Below, piece after piece: positions 37,418 through 50,531 of a stretch of 64,000 nt of DNA (its first letter is position 1; every line of letters begins with the position of its first letter). Position numbers and translations under genes: made by a program. The notes below the pieces were generated by a model that was not told where the DNA came from, ran no database searches, and saw nothing but the letters and a program-made list of their open reading frames with translations. Location of the stretch: the IMG/VR virus record IMGVR_UViG_3300026116_000040, positions 1,149-65,148 of that record; one strand, 5' to 3'. The stretch comes from a virus. Its lineage: Duplodnaviria > Caudoviricetes.

Positions 37418-38197
37418 ATGAAAATATTTATAATGACCTGGAATATTTTGGAGCATACTCGCAACATGGCAGAGTTTTTTGTTTCGTGTGGTCACGAACC
37501 GATAATCGTTGACAATTGCTCCACGTACCCTCCATTGCTTTCTTGGTACAATGAGTGTCCTTATAGGGTGGTTTCTACTGAAGGCGCGAAACTTTCAACA
37601 TATAATAGATTTTGTTGGGAAATGGGATTGCCAGAAAAGTACGCCCCAGGAGAAAATTATTACGCCGTAACTGATTGTGATTTGGTTTTTGAGGGTGTTC
37701 CAAGAGATTTTTGCGAAGTATTAATTGCAGATATTGAGCGCAGTGAGGGTATAATTAAATCAGGGTTATCCATACGGATTTCTGATCTTCCCGATAATGA
37801 ATACGCTCGTCGCTATCGTGAAGCAGAGGGTAATAATTGGGGCCACCAAAATCATCACGGTTTCTATGATATACCCGTAGACACAACATTTGCTGTGTAT
37901 TCCAAGGATCGTTGTAATAATTTAGATAGAATGTGGCGCGCTTCAGGGAGCGAGGTTCCGGAGACCTTTCTTGATAATTCATTTTTTTACAGGAGTCACC
38001 GTTCGCCCGAACCTTATACCGTGAAGCATATTCAGTGGTATGCAGACATAAATAATCTTAATGAAGAGCAAATATACAATCTGCTCGTTACTAGACATGG
38101 ATCGGTGCTCTACTTCAAACAGGTTTACGCAGCGGAATTATTAGAAAAATACAACATCGGTCCGGAGTGGCAGGATCCTAAAAATATAAAACTATAA
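37418..38197 (+). CDS. GT2-like glycosyltransferase
   Basis: IIVDNCSTYPPLL, YAVTDCDL, PVDTTFA. Confidence 0.7.
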   Translation: MKIFIMTWNILEHTRNMAEFFVSCGHEPIIVDNCSTYPPLLSWYNECPYRVVSTEGAKLSTYNRFCWEMGLPEKYAPGENYYAVTDCDLVFEGVPRDFCEVLIADIERSEGIIKSGLSIRISDLPDNEYARRYREAEGNNWGHQNHHGFYDIPVDTTFAVYSKDRCNNLDRMWRASGSEVPETFLDNSFFYRSHRSPEPYTVKHIQWYADINNLNEEQIYNLLVTRHGSVLYFKQVYAAELLEKYNIGPEWQDPKNIKL

Positions 38198-43855: not shown

Positions 43856-44086
43856 CTACTTATCGCCGGTTGTTGATTGGGGATGGCTTGAATAAATTAG
43901 CGTAAAAGTTATTGTCTGTTTCCCATTCACAATAGGCTGTTCTCTATATGATTTAGCCACTTTGCTTAATATTATCCTATTTAAATCGTGCGGCTTTCTG
44001 TCGCTTTTCTCGGCCATCTCTTCATTTGTCTTCTTTGTTTCCTCATCAACCCTGAATTGAGATATAACGTGTGTTAATTTCTGCAT
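43856..44086 (-). CDS. Ribbon-helix-helix-like regulator
   Basis: ISQFRVDEETKK..EEMAEKSDRK...LNRIIL; divergent from 44282. Confidence 0.55.
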   Translation of the reverse strand: MQKLTHVISQFRVDEETKKTNEEMAEKSDRKPHDLNRIILSKVAKSYREQPIVNGKQTITFTLIYSSHPQSTTGDK

Positions 44087-44281
44087 CTATCTATTTAATA
44101 GGTGATTGTAGAACAAAATTAGAAAATAAAAATTGATTTGCGCTGCAAATACAAAAATTACAAGAAATACGATACATTACTATAGTTACATCCAATGACG
44201 ATAGTTATATTATATACCTAGTTTTGTAATTACCTCCATTTTACATTTGTTCCATATTAACCAATAAAAACATAAAAAAAT

Positions 44282-44983
44282 ATGGAAACAGTAAATTCAT
44301 CAACAGGTTACGTTGGGGCCTATTCCTCAAGTAATGATGCCTTAACAGGCGTAGCAGCGTATGGTATTTGTGATCTTCGCAGAGATATTGCTAAAGCAGA
44401 ATCTGATCTTAGAGAAACAATACACAACCAAAGTCTTGTGCAAGGCACAGAATTTTGTGCAGTAAACAAAAGCATCCACGAAGCGGAATGTAATGTTATT
44501 AAAAATGATAATGACATTGCTCACCGAAACACTATTCACCTAAATTCTGTGGAGCGTGACTTGCAAAATCGCATTCTTGAAAATCGTCAAGTGTTAACAT
44601 CTATCATCGGAGACAAAACTGACAGAGTTCTTGACCGTATTGATCGTGAAGCTATTGACCTAAAAAATCAGTTGCGTGCGTTTGAAATGTCTAATGCAGA
44701 AAAATTCTGTGAACTTAAAACTGAAGGATTTAAAAACACTCAAAAGATCCTTGATGAATTAGCTAAAAATAAATATGATGCTATTAAAGATGAGTTGGAT
44801 GAAACTCGTTTATCTAAGTATCATGATAAAAGCGGCTATCAATTTGCTTTGCAAAACCAAGAGATTGCTTCCTTGAAACAAATGATCAACTCAGTAGAGC
44901 AAAATCAAAAATTCAGCTCAAAGACTGTACAATTTGGAACCGGAAATTTAGCCGGTACAGCACAAACTGCTAATCAAGGTTAA
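44282..44983 (+). CDS. Coiled-coil protein
   Basis: Long heptad-like helix; TACATTTG promoter upstream and A-rich translation start. Confidence 0.75.
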   Translation: METVNSSTGYVGAYSSSNDALTGVAAYGICDLRRDIAKAESDLRETIHNQSLVQGTEFCAVNKSIHEAECNVIKNDNDIAHRNTIHLNSVERDLQNRILENRQVLTSIIGDKTDRVLDRIDREAIDLKNQLRAFEMSNAEKFCELKTEGFKNTQKILDELAKNKYDAIKDELDETRLSKYHDKSGYQFALQNQEIASLKQMINSVEQNQKFSSKTVQFGTGNLAGTAQTANQG

Positions 44984-44993
44984 CTAACTAGCA

Positions 44994-45161
44994 ATGGCAA
45001 AAAGACCTGTTAAACAAGAAATTTACAATGAATACAGAAAAGAAACTTGTGACGAAAAAGGATTTCATAAGCCTAATCATTGTAATGCCGCGATCCTTTC
45101 CAAGTTAGACGAGATACTTGAAAAGTTGGAAAAATGGGAATCGCAAAACAAAAAGAAATAA
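44994..45161 (+). CDS. Small protein (55 aa, not in ORF track)
   Basis: MAKRPVKQEIY...ILSKLDEILEKLEKW. Confidence 0.55.
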   Translation: MAKRPVKQEIYNEYRKETCDEKGFHKPNHCNAAILSKLDEILEKLEKWESQNKKK

Positions 45162-45211
45162 TATTTACATATCGTTCGGTTCCGACATGTGCAGTGATAC
45201 GTAAGTATTTT

Positions 45212-45246
45212 AAACCCTGGAGAGCAATCTTCGGGGTTTTTTATTT
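45212..45246 (+). terminator. Intrinsic terminator insulating the tRNA array
   Basis: AAACCCTGGAGA-GCAA-TCTTCGGGGTTTTTT. Confidence 0.85.
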
Positions 45247-45283
45247 TATAAAAAAATAAATTTGTAATTAATAAAATTAGGTG

Positions 45284-45291
45284 TATATTTG
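45284..45291 (+). promoter_or_regulatory. Bacteroidota -7 promoter element, tRNA operon 1
   Basis: TATATTTG 4 nt before the leader ATG. Confidence 0.8.
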
Positions 45292-45295
45292 CATC

Positions 45296-45370
45296 ATGAA
45301 AACAATAACTCTACATCAACAACCGCAGCAACGTCGCCCGAAAAGCGATAAATGGGGTTATTGTGTTTAG
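45296..45370 (+). CDS. Attenuator leader peptide 1 (His/Gln/Pro/Arg)
   Basis: MKTITLHQQPQQRRPKSDKWGYCV, upstream of tRNA-Pro, Gln, His and Arg(ACG). Confidence 0.85.
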   Translation: MKTITLHQQPQQRRPKSDKWGYCV

Positions 45371-45393
45371 GGTATTTAAACATATAAGTAAGG

Positions 45394-45435
45394 AAACTAA
45401 CCCCGACATTGATTTGTTCGGGGTTTTTAGTTTTT
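45394..45435 (+). terminator. Attenuator terminator 1
   Basis: AACCCCGA...TCGGGGTT plus T-tract; GGGGTTA at 45354-45360 is an alternative partner of TAACCCC. Confidence 0.85.
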
Positions 45436-45439
45436 ATAT

Positions 45440-45515
45440 CTTGCGGTATAGGAGTCTGGTTTATCTAACCTCACTTGGAATGAGGAGTACGTGGGTTCAA
45501 ATCCCACTCGCAAGA
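45440..45515 (+). tRNA. trnP: tRNA-Pro(TGG)
   Basis: CCTCA-CTTGGAA-TGAGG anticodon arm, GGTTCAAATCC. Confidence 0.88.
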
Positions 45516-45596
45516 CGAGAGAGGAGACATTGGTTCGAGTCCAATCTGCGGGGCCAAGCCCTGCGGTAGTAACATATAGGAAATACGCCTCTCGTG
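45516..45596 (+). ncRNA. Circularly permuted tRNA-like RNA (YrlA/Y RNA-like architecture)
   Basis: Order: GAGAGG, T-arm ATTGG-TTCGAGT-CCAAT, CTGCGGG-G-CCA, linker, CCTGCGG, D-arm, CCTCTC. Confidence 0.65.
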
Positions 45597-45602
45597 TTTT
45601 AC

Positions 45603-45675
45603 TTTCGGGTCGTCTAGCGGCAGGATTTTGTGCTTTGAACACAAAGACGGTTTGGTTCGAATCCACCCCCGAAAA
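45603..45675 (+). tRNA. trnQ: tRNA-Gln(TTG)
   Basis: TTGTG-CTTTGAA-CACAA; acceptor TTTCGGG/CCCGAAA. Confidence 0.85.
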
Positions 45676-45677
45676 CT

Positions 45678-45747
45678 GTGTTATTAGCATATTGGTAATG
45701 TATTCGCCTGTGAAGCGAGTGAACAGGGTTCGATTCCCGATAACGTG
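45678..45747 (+). tRNA. trnH: tRNA-His(GTG), 3' acceptor strand interrupted by an insertion
   Basis: TTCGC-CTGTGAA-GCGAG; the perfect 3' strand ATAAC|ACC is split, with the remainder at 46219-46221. Confidence 0.75.
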
Positions 45748-46218
45748 GTGCAGCTACCAGAAGGGCGGGATTTTAATCACATAATAAACTTAGAAAGATG
45801 AATAACCAATTAACGCTACAACTGTCAGAAGAGGTACAAAGCCCCGCCTTTTTGGTAGGTGCTGTTACCACCAGTGCTTCTGTCTATGATGAATTCGAGT
45901 GGATAAACAATAATAACTTTGCAAAGGATGCACACAAGCATACTTCATGTGATTGGCAATTATCAAAGAATGAAATTTGGCTTGGCAATACGAGCGGAAA
46001 CAAGCCCTGGGAAAAGGGAGTAGATATTCCAAAAGACTATGATCATTTTAAGACTATTCGATTGGGCCATCAGGCATATTGCATTAAAGGTAAGCCGTTG
46101 AGTAGAGATTACTGTCTGCCTTTGATAATTGACAAATCAGAAGAGCAAGAGTATGATAGAATTTATATGAAGAAAATGTCCGCCTATGCAAGGTAGCGTC
46201 CTTAGCATTGGTGGTAAC
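45745..46218 (-). mobile_element. attC-like gene cassette inserted in tRNA-His
   Basis: GTTACCACCAGTGCT (45864-45878) is inversely repeated at 46204-46218 (14/15); long imperfect palindrome 45741-45866; TAAC at both junctions. Confidence 0.65.
45798..46196 (+). CDS. Cassette-borne hypothetical protein
   Basis: 132-aa ORF starting inside the palindrome loop. Confidence 0.6.
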   Translation: MNNQLTLQLSEEVQSPAFLVGAVTTSASVYDEFEWINNNNFAKDAHKHTSCDWQLSKNEIWLGNTSGNKPWEKGVDIPKDYDHFKTIRLGHQAYCIKGKPLSRDYCLPLIIDKSEEQEYDRIYMKKMSAYAR

Positions 46219-46226
46219 ACCCTTAT

Positions 46227-46298
46227 GTTTCATTAGGCTAAGGGACAAACCATTTGGCTACGAACCAAATATTACACGTTCGAATCGTGTATGAAACA
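46227..46298 (+). tRNA. trnR: tRNA-Arg(ACG)
   Basis: TTTGG-CTACGAA-CCAAA; acceptor GTTTCAT/ATGAAAC. Confidence 0.88.
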
Positions 46299-46309
46299 CT
46301 TAATATTTG

Positions 46310-46382
46310 TGCGAAAGAGTGGTACCGAGCCACTATCTTCGGATTTTCAGTCCGCTGCATAGACCATCTTTGCTACTTCCGC
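46310..46382 (-). tRNA. trnF: tRNA-Phe(GAA)
   Basis: CGGA-CTGAAAA-TCCG; atypical T-loop CTCGGTA. Confidence 0.8.
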
Positions 46383-46387
46383 TTTTG

Positions 46388-46458
46388 CGTTCTCGAATGG
46401 AATCGAACCATTATTAGCTGATTAACAGTCAGTCGTACTACCGTTGTACTACAAGAAC
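46388..46458 (-). tRNA. trnN: tRNA-Asn(GTT)
   Basis: CTGA-CTGTTAA-TCAG; GGTTCGATTCC. Confidence 0.88.
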
Positions 46459-46907
46459 TTTTTTATATACTCTTTATAGTACCCTAATTGGATAACAGTT
46501 TTAATTGCATGGCAATTAGCGCATAAAATTTCACATTTTCTTATTTCTGTTTTTACTGATTCAATAGAATTTCTATCTGCAATTAATGCTGCTACACTTG
46601 ATATTTTACCACTATTATCCTTGTGGTCGAATTGTAAAACAAATGGATTTTTATTTCCGCACTCTTTACAGCCACATAGTCTTTTATATCTTAAAGAAAG
46701 TTCTATTAAATATAGTCTATGATTTTTATCACATTCCTTTTTCTTGTTAACCCTTTTAAATGCCCTAGCATTACTTTTATCTTTTTGTCCTGTCCCACAA
46801 TGAAAGGCTACAGTTCCTTTGGAACATTTTAATTTCCCCGAAATTTTGTTATAAGAAAGTCCCCCCTTTCTTAATTTCAATATTTTTGCTCCAAGTCCTT
46901 TATTCAT
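46449..46907 (-). CDS. HNH endonuclease with N-terminal HTH
   Basis: CKECG...LQFDH...KCEILCANCH; own TATATTTG promoter at 46912-46919. Confidence 0.85.
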   Translation of the reverse strand: MNKGLGAKILKLRKGGLSYNKISGKLKCSKGTVAFHCGTGQKDKSNARAFKRVNKKKECDKNHRLYLIELSLRYKRLCGCKECGNKNPFVLQFDHKDNSGKISSVAALIADRNSIESVKTEIRKCEILCANCHAIKTVIQLGYYKEYIKKFL

Positions 46908-46972
46908 ACTGCAAATATATAAATAAAGGTTCAAATAAAAAAATGTTTTTTAAATCAATTGAACTATATTTG

Positions 46973-47046
46973 CGGGGTTAACGGAAATCGAATCCGTAAT
47001 CTCTTCCGTGACAGGGAAGCGTCATGCGCCAATATGCTGTAACCCC
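46973..47046 (-). tRNA. trnD: tRNA-Asp(GTC)
   Basis: CTTCC-CTGTCAC-GGAAG; acceptor GGGGTTA/TAACCCC. Confidence 0.85.
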
Positions 47047-47048
47047 GT

Positions 47049-47086
47049 AAAACAAAAAACCCTCAAGCTTTTAGCTCAAGGGTTTT
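47049..47086 (-). terminator. Attenuator terminator 2
   Basis: Minus strand AAACCCTTGAGC-TAAAA-GCTTGAGGGTTTTTT; CAAGG/GCTCA just after the leader stop can pair with the 5' arm. Confidence 0.85.
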
Positions 47087-47110
47087 GACAATATCATTCC
47101 ATGAGCCTTG

Positions 47111-47155
47111 TTAGGTTCTATTATCAAAATCGAAATTAAAATTTATTGTTTTCAT
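47111..47155 (-). CDS. Attenuator leader peptide 2 (Asn/Phe/Asp)
   Basis: MKTINFNFDFDNRT; TATATTTG-CACC-ATG leaderless start; upstream of tRNA-Asp, Asn and Phe. Confidence 0.85.
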   Translation of the reverse strand: MKTINFNFDFDNRT

Positions 47156-47179
47156 GGTGCAAATATAACTATTTTTTTG

Positions 47180-47251
47180 TCTCTGTGAAAAGAATCGAAC
47201 TTTTATTTATTGTTTAGAAGACAACTGTACTATCCATTGTACGACACAGAG
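47180..47251 (-). tRNA. trnR: tRNA-Arg(TCT)
   Basis: GTTGT-CTTCTAA-ACAAT; acceptor CTCTGTG/CACAGAG. Confidence 0.85.
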
Positions 47252-47259
47252 TTTATTTG

Positions 47260-47330
47260 TGTCCCTGAACAGAATCGAACTGTTGTCTTCCGGTTAAAAG
47301 CCGGAAGCTCTACCATTGAGCTACAAGGAC
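47260..47330 (-). tRNA. trnK: tRNA-Lys(TTT)
   Basis: TCCGG-CTTTTAA-CCGGA. Confidence 0.9.
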
Positions 47331-47400
47331 AAAACTTTATCTTCTCTTTCTCTTATGAGAAAAAGCAGGTTTTCGTTTTATTTTCCTTGTAGCATTCATG

Positions 47401-47471
47401 TTTCGCAAGATGGAATCGAACCACCGTAAACTGGATGTAAACCAATCACTCTACCATTGAGATATTGCGAA
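47401..47471 (-). tRNA. trnV: tRNA-Val(TAC)
   Basis: ATTGG-TTTACAT-CCAGT. Confidence 0.85.
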
Positions 47472-47477
47472 ATAAAG

Positions 47478-47547
47478 TGGACAGCGTGGGAATCGAACCC
47501 ATACAATCTGATTGCAAATCAGTTGGACTGCCGTTGTCATCGCGCCC
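47478..47547 (-). tRNA. trnA: tRNA-Ala(TGC)
   Basis: CTGA-TTTGCAA-TCAG; G3:U70; irregular acceptor/D region. Confidence 0.75.
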
Positions 47548-47553
47548 ATAATG

Positions 47554-47626
47554 TGTACCCTAAAGGGGTCGAACCTTTATCCCCTTTCTTATGAGGAAAG
47601 TGCTTTACCAATTAAGCTAAAGGAAC
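47554..47626 (-). tRNA. tRNA(CAT), probably Ile2 (lysidine), otherwise Met
   Basis: CTTTC-CTCATAA-GAAAG; third CAT tRNA of the window. Confidence 0.8.
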
Positions 47627-47630
47627 ATAG

Positions 47631-47701
47631 AGTACACAGAAAGAATCGAACTTTCTACTTTTGTTTTGCAGACAAATCTCAATCCATTTGAGTTTATGTA
47701 C
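47631..47701 (-). tRNA. trnC: tRNA-Cys(GCA)
   Basis: TTTGT-CTGCAAA-ACAAA; U73. Confidence 0.85.
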
Positions 47702-47706
47702 TTGTG

Positions 47707-47780
47707 AGCAGATAGCGAGAATCGAACTCGCTCTATTCCAGTTTGGAAGACTGGCGCACCACCAACTATGCGTTATCTGC
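47707..47780 (-). tRNA. trnG: tRNA-Gly(TCC)
   Basis: CCAGT-CTTCCAA-ACTGG; U73. Confidence 0.87.
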
Positions 47781-47789
47781 TTATTATCG

Positions 47790-47862
47790 TATTCGGTACG
47801 GGCATCGAACCCGTATCTGCAAAGTGAAAGTTTGCTATCCTGACCATTTAGAAGAACCGAAC
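47790..47862 (-). tRNA. trnE: tRNA-Glu(TTC)
   Basis: GCAAA-CTTTCAC-TTTGC. Confidence 0.87.
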
Positions 47863-47911
47863 ATTTCGTCGGTCTCCTCACTTAATCTGTTTTTCATTTT
47901 CATTTTTTAAG

Positions 47912-47983
47912 TTGGAATAAAAGGACTTGAACCTTTAGCCTTCGACGTATCAGGTCGCTGCTCCACCATTGAGCTATACTCCA
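47912..47983 (-). tRNA. trnI: tRNA-Ile(GAT)
   Basis: CGAC-CTGATAC-GTCG. Confidence 0.87.
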
Positions 47984-47989
47984 ATATTG

Positions 47990-48060
47990 TTGCGGAGAAG
48001 AGAATCGAACTCTTATCTGAGGCTTATGAGGCCCCCGTGCTACCGTTACACCACCACGCA
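47990..48060 (-). tRNA. trnM: tRNA-Met(CAT)
   Basis: GGGGC-CTCATAA-GCCTC. Confidence 0.82.
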
Positions 48061-48066
48061 ATTTTG

Positions 48067-48138
48067 AGCTTAGATTCGGAACTGACCCGAAAATTGATGC
48101 TTACAAGGCAACTGTTTTTCCCGTTAAACTATCCAAGC
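48067..48138 (-). tRNA. trnT: tRNA-Thr(TGT)
   Basis: TGC-CTTGTAA-GCA; atypical T-loop GTCAGTT. Confidence 0.78.
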
Positions 48139-48143
48139 TTAAG

Positions 48144-48215
48144 CACACCCTCTTTGAATCGAACAAAGTCCTTCGGTTTTGGAGACCGATTGGCTACCAT
48201 TAGCCCAAGATGCGT
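48144..48215 (-). tRNA. trnW: tRNA-Trp(CCA)
   Basis: TCGGT-CTCCAAA-ACCGA; G73. Confidence 0.83.
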
Positions 48216-48217
48216 AT

Positions 48218-48250
48218 AAAATAAAAAACCCCGATTTTTGGTCGAGGCTT
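48218..48250 (-). terminator. Attenuator terminator 4
   Basis: Minus strand GCCTCGA-CCAAAAA-TCGGGGT-TTTTT; CGGGGT at the leader end duplicates the 3' arm. Confidence 0.82.
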
Positions 48251-48276
48251 ACAATTTATATTTTTATAAATTTACT

Positions 48277-48369
48277 TCACCCCGTTATTTTAAATTTCTC
48301 AAACATGGCAATCCCAACACACCATTTTGTTGCGTTTGTTCTCGTGCCTATATTTGTAATTAGTTTCAT
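48277..48369 (-). CDS. Attenuator leader peptide 4 (Trp/Thr/Met/Ile/Glu/Gly/Cys/Ala/Val/Lys/Arg)
   Basis: MKLITNIGTRTNATKWCVGIAMFEKFKITG; contains all 11 amino acids of the downstream 12-tRNA operon. Confidence 0.8.
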   Translation of the reverse strand: MKLITNIGTRTNATKWCVGIAMFEKFKITG

Positions 48370-48398
48370 TGAAAATAGTATTGTTTTAAATATTTCGA

Positions 48399-48447
48399 CA
48401 AATATATGAATAATTGTTTTATATATCCAAATTTATTTTTACATTTG
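48399..48447. promoter_or_regulatory. Back-to-back Bacteroidota promoters for tRNA operons 3 and 4
   Basis: CAAATATA at 48399-48406 (minus) and TACATTTG at 48440-48447 (plus). Confidence 0.8.
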
Positions 48448-48451
48448 TACC

Positions 48452-48520
48452 ATGAAAACACAAAAATCATATAGCCTGTCTTTAAGTTATTCGTTGAGTA
48501 AACAAGAGGCATTCTATTGA
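48452..48520 (+). CDS. Attenuator leader peptide 3 (Ser/Tyr/Leu)
   Basis: MKTQKSYSLSLSYSLSKQEAFY, upstream of tRNA-Leu, Tyr, Ser, Ser and Leu. Confidence 0.87.
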   Translation: MKTQKSYSLSLSYSLSKQEAFY

Positions 48521-48538
48521 TTATACTGAAATAGATAC

Positions 48539-48579
48539 AAAAAAGCCTCTCGAATTTAATTGGGAGGCTTTTTTTATTT
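48539..48579 (+). terminator. Attenuator terminator 3
   Basis: AAAAGCCTCTCGA...TTGGGAGGCTTTTTTT; AGAGGC at 48505-48510 is an alternative partner of GCCTCT. Confidence 0.87.
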
Positions 48580-48653
48580 GCAGCAATGGTGAAACTGGTA
48601 AACACACAGGACTTAAAATCCTGACGCTTTGGGTTCGATTCCCAATTGCTGCA
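48580..48653 (+). tRNA. trnL: tRNA-Leu(TAA), short variable loop
   Basis: CAGGA-CTTAAAA-TCCTG; 5-nt variable region. Confidence 0.88.
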
Positions 48654-48659
48654 CTAAAT

Positions 48660-48733
48660 GGGTTGTTCATTGCTAACAGGTAAGCATTCGGTCTGTAACA
48701 CCGCTAATAGAGGTTCGATTCCTTTACACCCCA
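48660..48733 (+). tRNA. trnY: tRNA-Tyr(GTA), short variable loop
   Basis: CGGT-CTGTAAC-ACCG; ~4-nt variable region. Confidence 0.82.
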
Positions 48734-48738
48734 CATAC

Positions 48739-48824
48739 GGAAGATTAAACAGAAAGGCTCTGTAACCGCCTGCTAAGCGAGTTGTCCTGTAAAAAGGGAT
48801 GGATTTCGAATATTCAGTCTTCCG
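48739..48824 (+). tRNA. trnS: tRNA-Ser(GCT)
   Basis: CGC-CTGCTAA-GCG; long variable arm; G73. Confidence 0.8.
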
Positions 48825-48827
48825 TTT

Positions 48828-48921
48828 GGAAAGTAAAGCAGCTACATTGGAGTGGCGACTAGTCTTGAAAACTAGGTATCGGCGTAAAAAACTGATTGGA
48901 GGTCGGGTCTTCTGCTTTCCG
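48828..48921 (+). tRNA. trnS: tRNA-Ser(TGA)
   Basis: CTAGT-CTTGAAA-ACTAG; long variable arm; G73; atypical T-loop. Confidence 0.8.
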
Positions 48922-48926
48922 CAAAT

Positions 48927-49000
48927 GCCCAATTGGCGAAATTGGTAAACGCGCTACTCTTAGAAAGTAGATTTTACAGGTTCGACTCCTGTATTGGGCA
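48927..49000 (+). tRNA. trnL: tRNA-Leu(TAG), short variable loop
   Basis: CTACT-CTTAGAA-AGTAG; 5-nt variable region. Confidence 0.88.
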
Positions 49001-49664
49001 CAATTATAGCGTTCTTGTCCAACCCTTTAAATTTGTCATTTATCGTCTTCCTTTGGACATCAACATACTCTACACCCCATTGGTATGTCTTGTTTATTTT
49101 GCTCAGTCTTTTTTCATACATCTTATGCCGGCTGTAAACATAGTCGGGAGAAATGTACTTATAATGTAGTAATGGAACGGTGAATGGACTGTAAATAATA
49201 TTACCAATAGGATTTGCGGTATGGCAACCTGGCAAATAATTTATTTCTTGGATTTGATTGGGTCTAAAAAAACAAAGTTTGCTATACATTGAGTTAGGAA
49301 CGCCCAAACGCGAAGGTGGCGGACCAATCATATCGTAGCCTTTCGTTTTTACGATGGATGTATTTTTTAAGTCGGCGTTTACCGGCAACTCTAAAAATTC
49401 ATCAATGTCAACTACGCACACCCAGTCCGCTTTGCTTTTCTTCCAACAGCTGTTTTTTATTTTAAGATACAAATCATCCCGTATTTCATCTTGTGAATTA
49501 TAATCGATCAGCGTGCATCCAGCAGCATTTATTATTTCACGGGAATTGTCGATAGACCGGTTATCGAAAATGGTGATGTTGGCCCCCATAGATTGATAAT
49601 GCTTTATGAAGTGGGGCAGTAAGAACGCTTCATTGTAACAGATACTAAATACGTCGATGTTCAT
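48960..49664 (-). CDS. GT2-like glycosyltransferase
   Basis: YNEAFLLPHFIKHY, FDNRSID, DWVCVVDIDEFL; 3' end overlaps tRNA-Leu antisense. Confidence 0.85.
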   Translation of the reverse strand: MNIDVFSICYNEAFLLPHFIKHYQSMGANITIFDNRSIDNSREIINAAGCTLIDYNSQDEIRDDLYLKIKNSCWKKSKADWVCVVDIDEFLELPVNADLKNTSIVKTKGYDMIGPPPSRLGVPNSMYSKLCFFRPNQIQEINYLPGCHTANPIGNIIYSPFTVPLLHYKYISPDYVYSRHKMYEKRLSKINKTYQWGVEYVDVQRKTINDKFKGLDKNAIIVPNTGVEPVKSTF

Positions 49665-49756
49665 GTTGTAGTTATTTAAGACACCAAAGCCGCCTACGTG
49701 AACGTAAGCGGCTTGTTTTACAGATAAACCTTACGGGGTTTGGCTGTCGGTTGGAA

Positions 49757-49915
49757 TTACTTTTTCTCTGCCGCTTTTTTAGCGTCTTGTTCGGGTTTAT
49801 AGACTAAGAAATAATAAAGTCCAGCTGTTGCTACAATTAATGCGGCAACCACTAGACCTGTATTACTTTTTTCTCCTCCAGGTAAAGCGGGAGTATTGAA
49901 TGATGTGATTGACAT
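49757..49915 (-). CDS. Small membrane protein (52 aa, not in ORF track)
   Basis: MSITSFNTPALPGGEKSNTGLVVAALIVATAGLYYFLVYKP...; hairpin at 49688-49714 downstream. Confidence 0.6.
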   Translation of the reverse strand: MSITSFNTPALPGGEKSNTGLVVAALIVATAGLYYFLVYKPEQDAKKAAEKK

Positions 49916-49919
49916 GGTT

Positions 49920-50531
49920 TTATTTTTTAGTTAAAATGAATTTTTGATTAGTTTCTTTTAAAAGGAAATGTGTGGTAGCAATACCATTATCTCCATCCTT
50001 CTCATAGGTTTCAAAGATAACAGAATAAGCAACAGGAGCCAAAGTTTTTAATTCGGCCAGGTCAACTTCGATTTTGCCAGCTCTGAACATAGACAAAAGC
50101 TCTTTATCTATTTCAACTCCTTTCGGGTCGTCCGTTTTCGCAGGCTCATCAACTTTTGCAGGCGGTTCAACTTTTACAGGTGGCGAGGCTGGTTCAACTG
50201 TTTTGGACGGCGCTGCCGGTTCATCTTTTTTTATGTCCGCAATGATAGTAGCGGCGGCGGCCGGAGGTGCTGAAGCGTTACTATTCTTATCCTCCATGTA
50301 ATCTAAAATCTCTCTAACTATCCACCTGTCAAAGGCTTTTATCTTATTTTCAGTAGAAGCAGAAGGGGTGTATTTTTTACCATTCTTCACTGCTTTCTTT
50401 TCTTGAAGGACAATAGCTTTTTCTATTTCTTTAATTTGCTGAATGCCGAGCTGGGCTTCTGGTGTAAGATCGGTGGCGGCAAGGCTATGCTCTACCAGCA
50501 GGTCTTCGTAAGCGTATTTTGATTTTGACAT
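49920..50531 (-). CDS. Hypothetical protein with Pro/Ala-rich linker
   Basis: 203-aa ORF. Confidence 0.65.
   Translation of the reverse strand: MSKSKYAYEDLLVEHSLAATDLTPEAQLGIQQIKEIEKAIVLQEKKAVKNGKKYTPSASTENKIKAFDRWIVREILDYMEDKNSNASAPPAAAATIIADIKKDEPAAPSKTVEPASPPVKVEPPAKVDEPAKTDDPKGVEIDKELLSMFRAGKIEVDLAELKTLAPVAYSVIFETYEKDGDNGIATTHFLLKETNQKFILTKK

Follow-up and report, generated by a model that had tools for sequence, protein, structure and literature searches.

Introduction

Classical leader-peptide attenuators of enterobacterial amino-acid operons include the multivalent thrL and ilvL as well as hisL, trpL and pheL. In the pheST (pheM) attenuator of Escherichia coli, a leader with cognate codons gates the mRNA of an aminoacyl-tRNA synthetase. 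This study concerns a leader in a stretch of phage DNA, hereafter the window, which comprises 64,000 of the 65,148 bases of IMG/VR virus record IMGVR_UViG_3300026116_000040. A 24-codon open reading frame (ORF) in the window stands ahead of genes for tRNA-Pro, Gln, His and Arg, and it is likely, in our view, that this element is a transcription attenuator of the ribosome-mediated leader-peptide kind and exerts feedback on tRNA supply.

Why and when phages use tRNA genes has been argued for decades. The two main ideas are reportedly codon compensation and escape from tRNA-targeting defences. The nearest published case that was found is an accessory tRNA array, the trn L-array of Anabaena sp. PCC 7120, which the available portions of two papers describe as repressed by TrcR, a protein binding direct repeats in the promoter (PMC8421152; PMC10272220). 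The words attenuat-, leader peptide and terminator have 0 occurrences in the available text of PMC8421152. No published account of leader-peptide control of tRNA genes was found in full-text literature searches, subscription journals being outside the coverage.

The leader and its control codons

The source virus of the window is a virus of Bacteroidota bacteria. The window has a GC content of 37.3%, and CheckV places the completeness of the virus record at ~32%. The anatomy of the element, its alternative folds, the covariation of these folds and the match between leader and tRNA set across phages were established computationally. The promoter, leader and operon are laid out as follows.

45261..45264, + strand: TTTG, putative -33 element of the promoter, at -35 to -32 counted from the ATG
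45284..45291, + strand: TATATTTG, Bacteroidota sigma-A -7 box (TAnnTTTG), which predicts +1 at 45296
45296..45370, + strand: leader ORF MKTITLHQQPQQRRPKSDKWGYCV, 24 codons plus TAG (ATG at 45296, stop codon at 45368-45370)
45314..45340, + strand: HQQPQQRRP, nine control codons that all match tRNAs encoded downstream
45440..45516, + strand: tRNA-Pro(tgg), from ARAGORN and the Rfam tRNA model
45603..45676, + strand: tRNA-Gln(ttg), from ARAGORN and the Rfam tRNA model
45676..45749, + strand: tRNA-His(gtg), from ARAGORN and the Rfam tRNA model
45798..46196, + strand: 132-aa ORF between tRNA-His and tRNA-Arg, from the ORF list, function unassigned
46227..46299, + strand: tRNA-Arg(acg), from ARAGORN and the Rfam tRNA model

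A first-pass annotation, made from the letters of the window, had pointed to nine consecutive cognate codons, CAT CAA CAA CCG CAG CAA CGT CGC CCG, and they are present at 45314-45340, in an ORF that sits 100 nt ahead of tRNA-Pro. The downstream set that it had named, tRNA-Pro, Gln, His and Arg(ACG), was recovered by both ARAGORN and Rfam, with Rfam tRNA model scores of 44.5 to 54.8 bits. All 9/9 codons are readable by the four anticodons under standard wobble, A34 being taken as inosine. In the 40 long ORFs of the window 10.1% of codons are cognate, so that nine in a row have p ~1.1e-9 per position. Over the six frames of the 64 kb, cognate runs of 9, 6 and 5 number one, two and twelve, respectively. 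Given this probability, and because the leader holds the longest run in six frames, a chance origin of the codon run is excluded.

The match extends to the codon family. Both Arg codons of the leader are CGY, which anticodon ACG reads, and AGA plus AGG account for 63% of the Arg codons in the ORFs of the window. Among relatives of the locus (described below) that have only Arg(acg) in the operon, the Arg control codons are CGN in 15/15.

The leader begins close to a candidate promoter. The TTTG at 45261..45264 resembles the -33 motif described for Bacteroides sigma-A promoters in the available part of PMC7366714. The ATG lies four bases past the box TATATTTG, as the first-pass annotation had it. 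In Flavobacterium psychrophilum, the sigma-A box TAnnTTTG is placed at -12 to -5 in the portion of PMC9723704 available, and a box at -12 to -5 would put +1 on the A of the ATG. The leader mRNA is probably leaderless, with transcription starting at the ATG; the earlier proposal to that effect fits the published promoter geometry, and the start site is inferred rather than mapped.

Alternative folds of the leader RNA

The leader RNA folds better than 200/200 dinucleotide shuffles (z -4.11). Folding delimits the following segments.

45308..45327, + strand: segment 1, 5' arm of the 1:2 hairpin, overlapping the first control codons
45353..45373, + strand: segment 2, 3' arm of the 1:2 hairpin, holding GGGGTTA (45354-45360) and the stop codon (45368-45370)
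45362..45384, + strand: small hairpin nested in the antiterminator
45395..45408, + strand: segment 3, 5' arm of the terminator, whose TAACCCC (45398-45404) pairs with segment 2 or 4
45415..45435, + strand: segment 4 and T-runs, 3' arm and tail of the terminator (GTTCGGGG at 45416-45423; T-runs at 45424-45428 and 45431-45435)

The 1:2 hairpin (45308-45373, -19.8 kcal/mol) buries the control codons. The terminator hairpin (45395-45424, -15.0 kcal/mol) is followed by T5 at 45424-45428. The complementarity of GGGGTTA (45354-45360) with TAACCCC (45398-45404), on which the first-pass annotation had built its antiterminator, was found at exactly these positions. With a ribosome mask over the control codons and the RNA cut short of the terminator's 3' arm, this 2:3 antiterminator is the minimum-energy fold, both for 45346-45405 and for 45346-45412. 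Together with the nested hairpin it has an energy of -13.7 kcal/mol, or -14.5 kcal/mol with four outer pairs. The window's own segment 2:3 duplex comes to -12.0 kcal/mol, against a cross-locus mean of -7.1.

The spacing was examined with a modelled ribosome. The distance from the last control codon to segment 2 is 13 nt, and that from segment 2 to the stop is 7 nt; over 36 leaders, the respective medians are 9 and 10 nt. The ribosome footprint is assumed to extend from -12 to +15 around the P site. With this assumed footprint, a ribosome whose A site holds the stop codon would cover 45353-45380, which is segment 2, while a ribosome on the control codons would leave segment 2 free. The layout of 1:2, 2:3 and 3:4 pairings is of the trp type.

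Known RNA families were searched with Rfam. No leader family (Trp, His, Thr, Leu or Phe) matched at gathering score in the window, where only tRNAs reach that score; the leader region, searched at E<=10, yielded nothing above sub-threshold noise, Trp_leader (RF00513) giving 14.4 bits against a gathering score of 41 (E 1.8). A T-box-like riboswitch that binds uncharged tRNA directly would follow the same logic, since there too tRNA status sets the choice between terminator and antiterminator. However, no T-box or other riboswitch matched at gathering score in the window, nor at E<=10 in 45240-45445, and the leader samples four amino acids by in-frame codons after an ATG, which is impossible for one specifier loop. 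We give this explanation next to no chance.

Leader content and tRNA content in related loci

IMG/VR was searched with a pattern consisting of TTTG-N4-ATGAAA followed by a T-run at a distance of 100-130 nt and, another 40-70 nt on, a tRNA T-loop, with the content of the leader left unconstrained. The search retrieved 55 loci. Identical leaders or identical DNA were collapsed before counts were taken, and one filter step retained only leaders that are 12-30 aa long and have a tRNA no more than 260 nt away. In 35/49 unique leaders, six or more consecutive in-frame residues matched tRNAs within 1.5 kb downstream, versus 0/49 in frame +1 and 0/49 in frame +2. The mean longest run was 6.59; with leaders re-paired to other tRNA sets it was 2.86 (sd 0.32, at most 3.92 over 2000 trials). 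In the 36 loci with a run of at least 5, 274/314 control codons were cognate under strict wobble, rising to 302 if U34 reads whole four-codon boxes.

These counts bear on whether the ORF is translated at all. Were it untranslated, the hairpins could serve as a constitutive terminator, an RNA-processing signal or the target of a protein or RNA factor, and the codon match would be a by-product; such an explanation gains from the fact that leaderless translation is uncommon in Bacteroidota, according to the available parts of PMC9723704 and PMC7366714. The codon match is nevertheless confined to the frame of the ORF and follows the genetic code across different tRNA sets. The match argues for translation because only translation connects codons with tRNA identity, and an untranslated ORF strikes us as very unlikely.

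The same pattern found 43 loci in 185,579 cellular genomes, nearly all of them chance matches; one of the 43 was not re-found by regular expression. A run of at least 6 occurred in 1/38 unique leaders from these genomes. Those genome loci in which matching leaders were recognized by eye (L078, L093, L096, L097, L101 and L117) lie on contigs titled Bacteroidota.

A first scan with the exact motif had yielded 19 loci. Fourteen of these were ordinary genes and were rejected as tRNA leaders. The other 5/19 (L008, L011, L012, L015 and L016) have a tRNA array behind a matching leader; two tRNA-sized gaps in the array of L011 gave no Rfam tRNA match.

Covariation among the Pro-type leaders

Twenty-three fetched loci (21 viral, 2 genome contigs) consist of distinct leader DNA followed by tRNA-Pro. 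The usual order, Pro, (Glu), Gln, His, (Leu-tag), Arg-acg, holds in 22/23, and the window's operon, like these Pro-type relatives, begins with tRNA-Pro(tgg), with Gln, His and Arg(acg) behind it. Within this group, the content of the leader tracks that of the tRNA set. Glu codons occur in the leader core of 14/14 units with tRNA-Glu versus 1/13 without it (Fisher 7.5e-7; 27 Pro-type leaders, which are not phylogenetically independent). Where tRNA-Phe is present, in L037, the leader run is HQFPFQFRP, and the second unit of L024, with two Ile tRNAs, has a leader that reads MIRIQHIEQP...

Segment 2 and the terminator arm also change together. The pair is GGGGTTA and TAACCCC in the window, GGGTGG and CCATCC in L027, and in L030 segment 2 (GAACAGGTT) changes in step with the terminator arm (AGCCTGTTC). 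The duplex of segment 2 with the terminator arm of its own locus has a mean of -9.22 kcal/mol, compared with -6.19 kcal/mol across loci (Wilcoxon 1.2e-7; n=46 loci, non-members included). In alignment A1 (23 rows), the antiterminator helix is paired in 78.6% of cells and shows 19 double-sided changes, versus 9.3 in shuffles (0/500 reach 19); its score is 0.421, versus 0.05-0.24 for slid partners. The A1 row of the window is misaligned by three columns, so the antiterminator count is conservative for the window. The terminator is paired in 92.6% of A1 cells, with 30 double changes. A long 1:2-type hairpin was found in 20/20 relatives tested and in the window (z -1.2 to -4.6).

A covariance model, R1, was built from 22 relatives with the window excluded. 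Its best match in the window is 45296-45433 (60.9 bits, E 2.6e-9, the full length of the model, positions 1-132), and the next three matches, at 39.1, 28.5 and 26.6 bits, are the window's other leader-terminator units. By this measure the window unit is homologous to the Pro-type phage leaders, with which it shares the promoter, the leader, the 1:2/2:3/3:4 layout and tRNA-Pro in first place. The relatives usually also have tRNA-Glu and/or tRNA-Leu(tag) with matching codons, whereas the window unit is without both and differs further in an 87-nt non-tRNA element in the Glu slot and an ORF ahead of tRNA-Arg.

Alternatively, the ORF could code for a working micro-protein such as a regulator, the terminator being incidental. 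C-terminal residues do recur in relatives (GGTSV, GGIGV, GSTWYG), as such a protein would have it. These residues, however, are encoded by the G-rich segment 2 and the outer helix at the stop, which are under RNA pairing constraint, and the middle of the peptide varies with the tRNA set instead of being conserved. A micro-protein is highly improbable, in our estimate.

Pro is almost always encoded by CCG in the Pro-type leaders of A1, and CCG makes up 21% of the Pro codons of the window. In the folds CCG belongs to segment 1 and has its pairing partner in the G-rich segment 2; this suggests that codon choice is under RNA constraint.

Proposed mechanism

The attenuator reading put forward in the first-pass annotation is supported by the folds, by 2:3 covariation in 22 relatives and by leader content that tracks tRNA content. 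Start site, leader translation and conditional termination are deduced from sequence, and the circuit would work as follows. Host RNA polymerase would start at the A of the ATG and give a leaderless mRNA, and a ribosome would translate the 24-codon leader close behind it. With ample charged tRNA-His, Gln, Pro and Arg(ICG), the ribosome would reach the TAG at 45368 and cover segment 2; the 3:4 terminator would then form, and transcription would end at about 45428. When any sensed tRNA is short, the ribosome would stall on the nine control codons, holding segment 1 and leaving segment 2 free. GGGGUUA would then pair with UAACCCC, the terminator would be blocked, and polymerase would enter the genes for tRNA-Pro, Gln and His, and by extension Arg. 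If the leader were not translated, the 1:2 hairpin would sequester segment 2, and termination would result. Because its products are the sensed tRNAs, the circuit would constitute negative feedback on tRNA supply, and production of these tRNAs by the phage is probably confined to times of shortage at the ribosome.

Several observations weigh against this proposal. As to the codons, just 9/24 leader codons match downstream tRNAs. The T, I, T and L ahead of the run and the KSDKWGYCV after it are unmatched, and in the 27 Pro-type leaders no tRNA ever matches the T, I, K and N residues near the N-terminus. A Leu CTA codon lies at 45311, yet the operon is without a Leu tRNA; 7/27 Pro-type leaders, the window's included, have Leu codons and no Leu tRNA detected. 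Host tRNAs also read the control codons of the leader. As to the folds, the 2:3 helix alone has just 7 pairs (-8.2 kcal/mol), and equilibrium folding retains the terminator whenever the RNA includes segment 4, whether or not the ribosome mask is applied. Attenuators generally decide their fold during transcription, and since the terminator is kept at equilibrium once segment 4 exists, the switch proposed here must be kinetic and decided during transcription.

As to the sample, the 4-nt spacing and the MK start were prescribed by the search pattern, which means that neither can be called conserved from the retrieved set, and the loci are kin to each other, so that the shuffle and Fisher figures overstate independence. 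As to the operon, tRNA-Arg starts 478 nt past tRNA-His, behind the 132-aa ORF. On the + strand of 45430-46299 the sole terminator-like site listed is 45609-45621, within tRNA-Gln, and in relatives Arg(acg) lies directly inside the Pro operon; we infer that tRNA-Arg is co-transcribed with the Pro, Gln and His genes. As to the promoter, leaderless mRNAs are rare in the phylum. The available portions of the sources give 5.5% for F. psychrophilum (PMC9723704) and ~3.7% for 5' untranslated regions <10 nt in B. thetaiotaomicron (PMC7366714).

Other leader units in the window

The start motif was found three more times in the record. A minus-strand unit consists of MKTINFNFDFDNRT, then a terminator and tRNA-Asp, Asn and Phe. 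The unit at 48452 has MKTQKSYSLSLSYSLSKQEAFY ahead of tRNA-Leu(taa), Tyr(gta) and Leu(tag), with two intervening stretches that were read by eye as Ser tRNAs; of their anticodons, GCT was read by eye only and UGA comes from a sub-threshold tRNA-Sec match. A 30-codon ORF at 48369-48277 precedes a twelve-tRNA block.

The same switch might answer another signal, amino-acid starvation or a general slowing of translation, through uncharged tRNA and with no feedback loop. Classical attenuators respond to charged-tRNA levels, and sequence alone cannot separate tRNA abundance from charging. The Anabaena accessory tRNA array, moreover, is induced by general translational stress according to the available text of PMC8421152. 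Against such a signal, leaders sample the isoacceptors of their own operon down to the codon family, as the CGY codons with Arg(acg) and the relatives show, and the window has four separate units with four codon sets, a partitioning that a general stress signal would make needless. We hold this explanation to be unlikely and prefer feedback on tRNA supply.

A further step can be put forward as a tentative possibility, on balance somewhat doubtful: the leaders may act as isoacceptor-level demand sensors, such that loss of host tRNAs, through shut-off or through tRNA-cleaving defence nucleases, would lead to transcription of the exact replacement tRNAs. If this were true, the leaders would be an inducible closed-loop counter-measure common to many Bacteroidota phages.

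The tRNA operons tend to group by the first base of the codon (window 45440-49001; L008, L024, L029, L042 and L058). The C-first group comprises Pro, His, Gln, Arg-CGN and Leu-CUN; the U-first group comprises Phe, Leu-UUR, Ser-UCN, Tyr, Cys and Trp; the remaining tRNAs, for A- and G-first codons, form a third. A separate matched leader belongs to each group. Exceptions are Glu in the C-first group and Ser(gct) in the U-first group.

In large mixed operons (the second units of L008, L024, L029, L049 and L070), the leaders start 18-36 nt past the TAnnTTTG box; one example is MKSMNNIKTIARVGDNFPSKRFMV, ahead of 11 tRNAs. With starts at this distance, the large-operon leaders are predicted not to be leaderless, and the same prediction applies to the window's 30-codon leader at 48369.

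A long variable arm is usual in the Leu tRNAs of bacteria. The tRNA-Leu genes of the window (48580-48654 and 48927-49001) are 74-75 nt long and align to the short-variable-arm tRNA model.

Neighbouring sequence

One further feature lies upstream of the attenuator unit.

45212..45242, + strand: intrinsic terminator of the upstream gene, from a terminator scan (12-pair stem and T-run)

This terminator is predicted to insulate the attenuator unit from the upstream gene. The terminator half of model R1 matches weakly at 45197-45246.

The 87-nt stretch between tRNA-Pro and tRNA-Gln (45517-45602) contains a T-arm-like GGTTCGAGTCC and was called as a tRNA by neither ARAGORN nor Rfam. Its slot holds tRNA-Glu in many relatives. 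Its alignment score to the relatives' tRNA-Glu is no better than to other tRNAs, and a decayed tRNA-Glu is neither shown nor excluded by these comparisons.

Protein ORFs lie inside two tRNA operons, at 45798-46196 (+) and 46449-46934 (-). The first, of 132 aa, matched no Pfam family and had no relative in IMG/VR. The second, of 161 aa, has a sub-threshold GerE/LuxR-type match (E 0.0032) and a C-terminal Cys/His pattern that, by eye, we take to resemble HNH endonucleases. Pfam searches of ten large ORFs and four neighbours were uninformative, save for that GerE match on ORF 46449-46934. IMG/VR relatives sought through the 132-aa and 233-aa neighbour proteins were not found. At the DNA level, megablast of 44000-50000 against phages gave one 38-base match, and blastn of 45284-45760 matched nothing but short stretches of tRNA in phages of enterobacteria.

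Contigs of run X2 are identical to 45200-46300 wherever they cover it, the whole leader included. Contigs of run X3 have several differences in 45571-45651, which spans part of the 87-nt element and tRNA-Gln. Run X6 gave a 253-base contig over 45321-45570, across the terminator; this run is labelled RNA-Seq and flagged as probably DNA, and nothing was drawn from it.

The element in cultured Cellulophaga phages

Cellulophaga phages phi4:1 (NC_021788.1) and phi38:1 (NC_021796.1) carry the same element, which is unannotated as such. Retrieved locus L058 is 100% identical to phi4:1 over 3,001 bases. The phi4:1 leader, MKIQRLHLQELEQPIISGGTGV (ATG at 87065), has no annotation in the GenBank record. 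In phi38:1 the leader MNVTLLHQEPLEQLRLPSRVPYYGIDELS (ATG at 37987) stands ahead of Pro, Glu, Gln, His, Leu and Arg tRNAs and is hidden within a longer hypothetical ORF, gp070, of the GenBank record. The available text of the phi38:1 transcriptome paper mentions only host tRNA genes (PMC5335546).

The tRNA array of phi4:1 (L121, NC_021788.1) also contains two 'hypothetical proteins', gp075 and gp076, at 87989-88108 and 90117-90218, just ahead of further tRNA blocks. These may be leader ORFs or overlap them. The best scripted leader for the Tyr/Ser/Asn block of phi4:1 starts at 89771.

Discussion

A leader that samples the codons of its own operon would make tRNA expression conditional on decoding trouble, operon by operon. 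The leader would be a compact natural sensor of tRNA supply, and leader-peptide attenuation would reach beyond biosynthetic enzymes to the tRNAs as such. Such a leader opens the question of when phages use their tRNA genes to experiment. The element also occurs in phage-host pairs that are in culture, namely Cellulophaga baltica and phi4:1 or phi38:1.

The phage leader resembles thrL, ilvL, hisL, trpL and pheL in having a short ORF with regulatory codons and alternative 1:2, 2:3 and 3:4 folds. As in the enterobacterial leaders, an intrinsic terminator precedes the regulated genes and the stop codon is placed so that the ribosome covers segment 2, and as in leaders of the thrL/ilvL type, several amino acids are sampled by one leader. 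The element differs from them in being phage-borne and sitting in a Bacteroidota setting, with a probably leaderless start at a TAnnTTTG promoter, and in its targets. Enterobacterial leaders regulate enzyme genes, whereas the phage leader would regulate tRNA genes; the genes downstream of it, tRNAs and one ORF of unassigned function, do not make or charge the sensed amino acid. These tRNA targets are the point of novelty with respect to known leader-peptide attenuators.

Three other systems share part of this logic. In pheST, as in the phage, cognate codons gate a decoding component for the same amino acid; the pheST target is a synthetase mRNA for one amino acid, whereas the phage targets are four tRNA genes. 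T-boxes likewise sense tRNA status and pick a terminator or an antiterminator but, unlike the phage leader, bind the tRNA directly and without an ORF. The Anabaena trn L-array, as far as the available text of its papers goes, is accessory, horizontally mobile and silent until translation is impaired, much as is proposed for the phage operon; there, control is by a protein repressor at the promoter, whereas the phage operon would be controlled by its leader.

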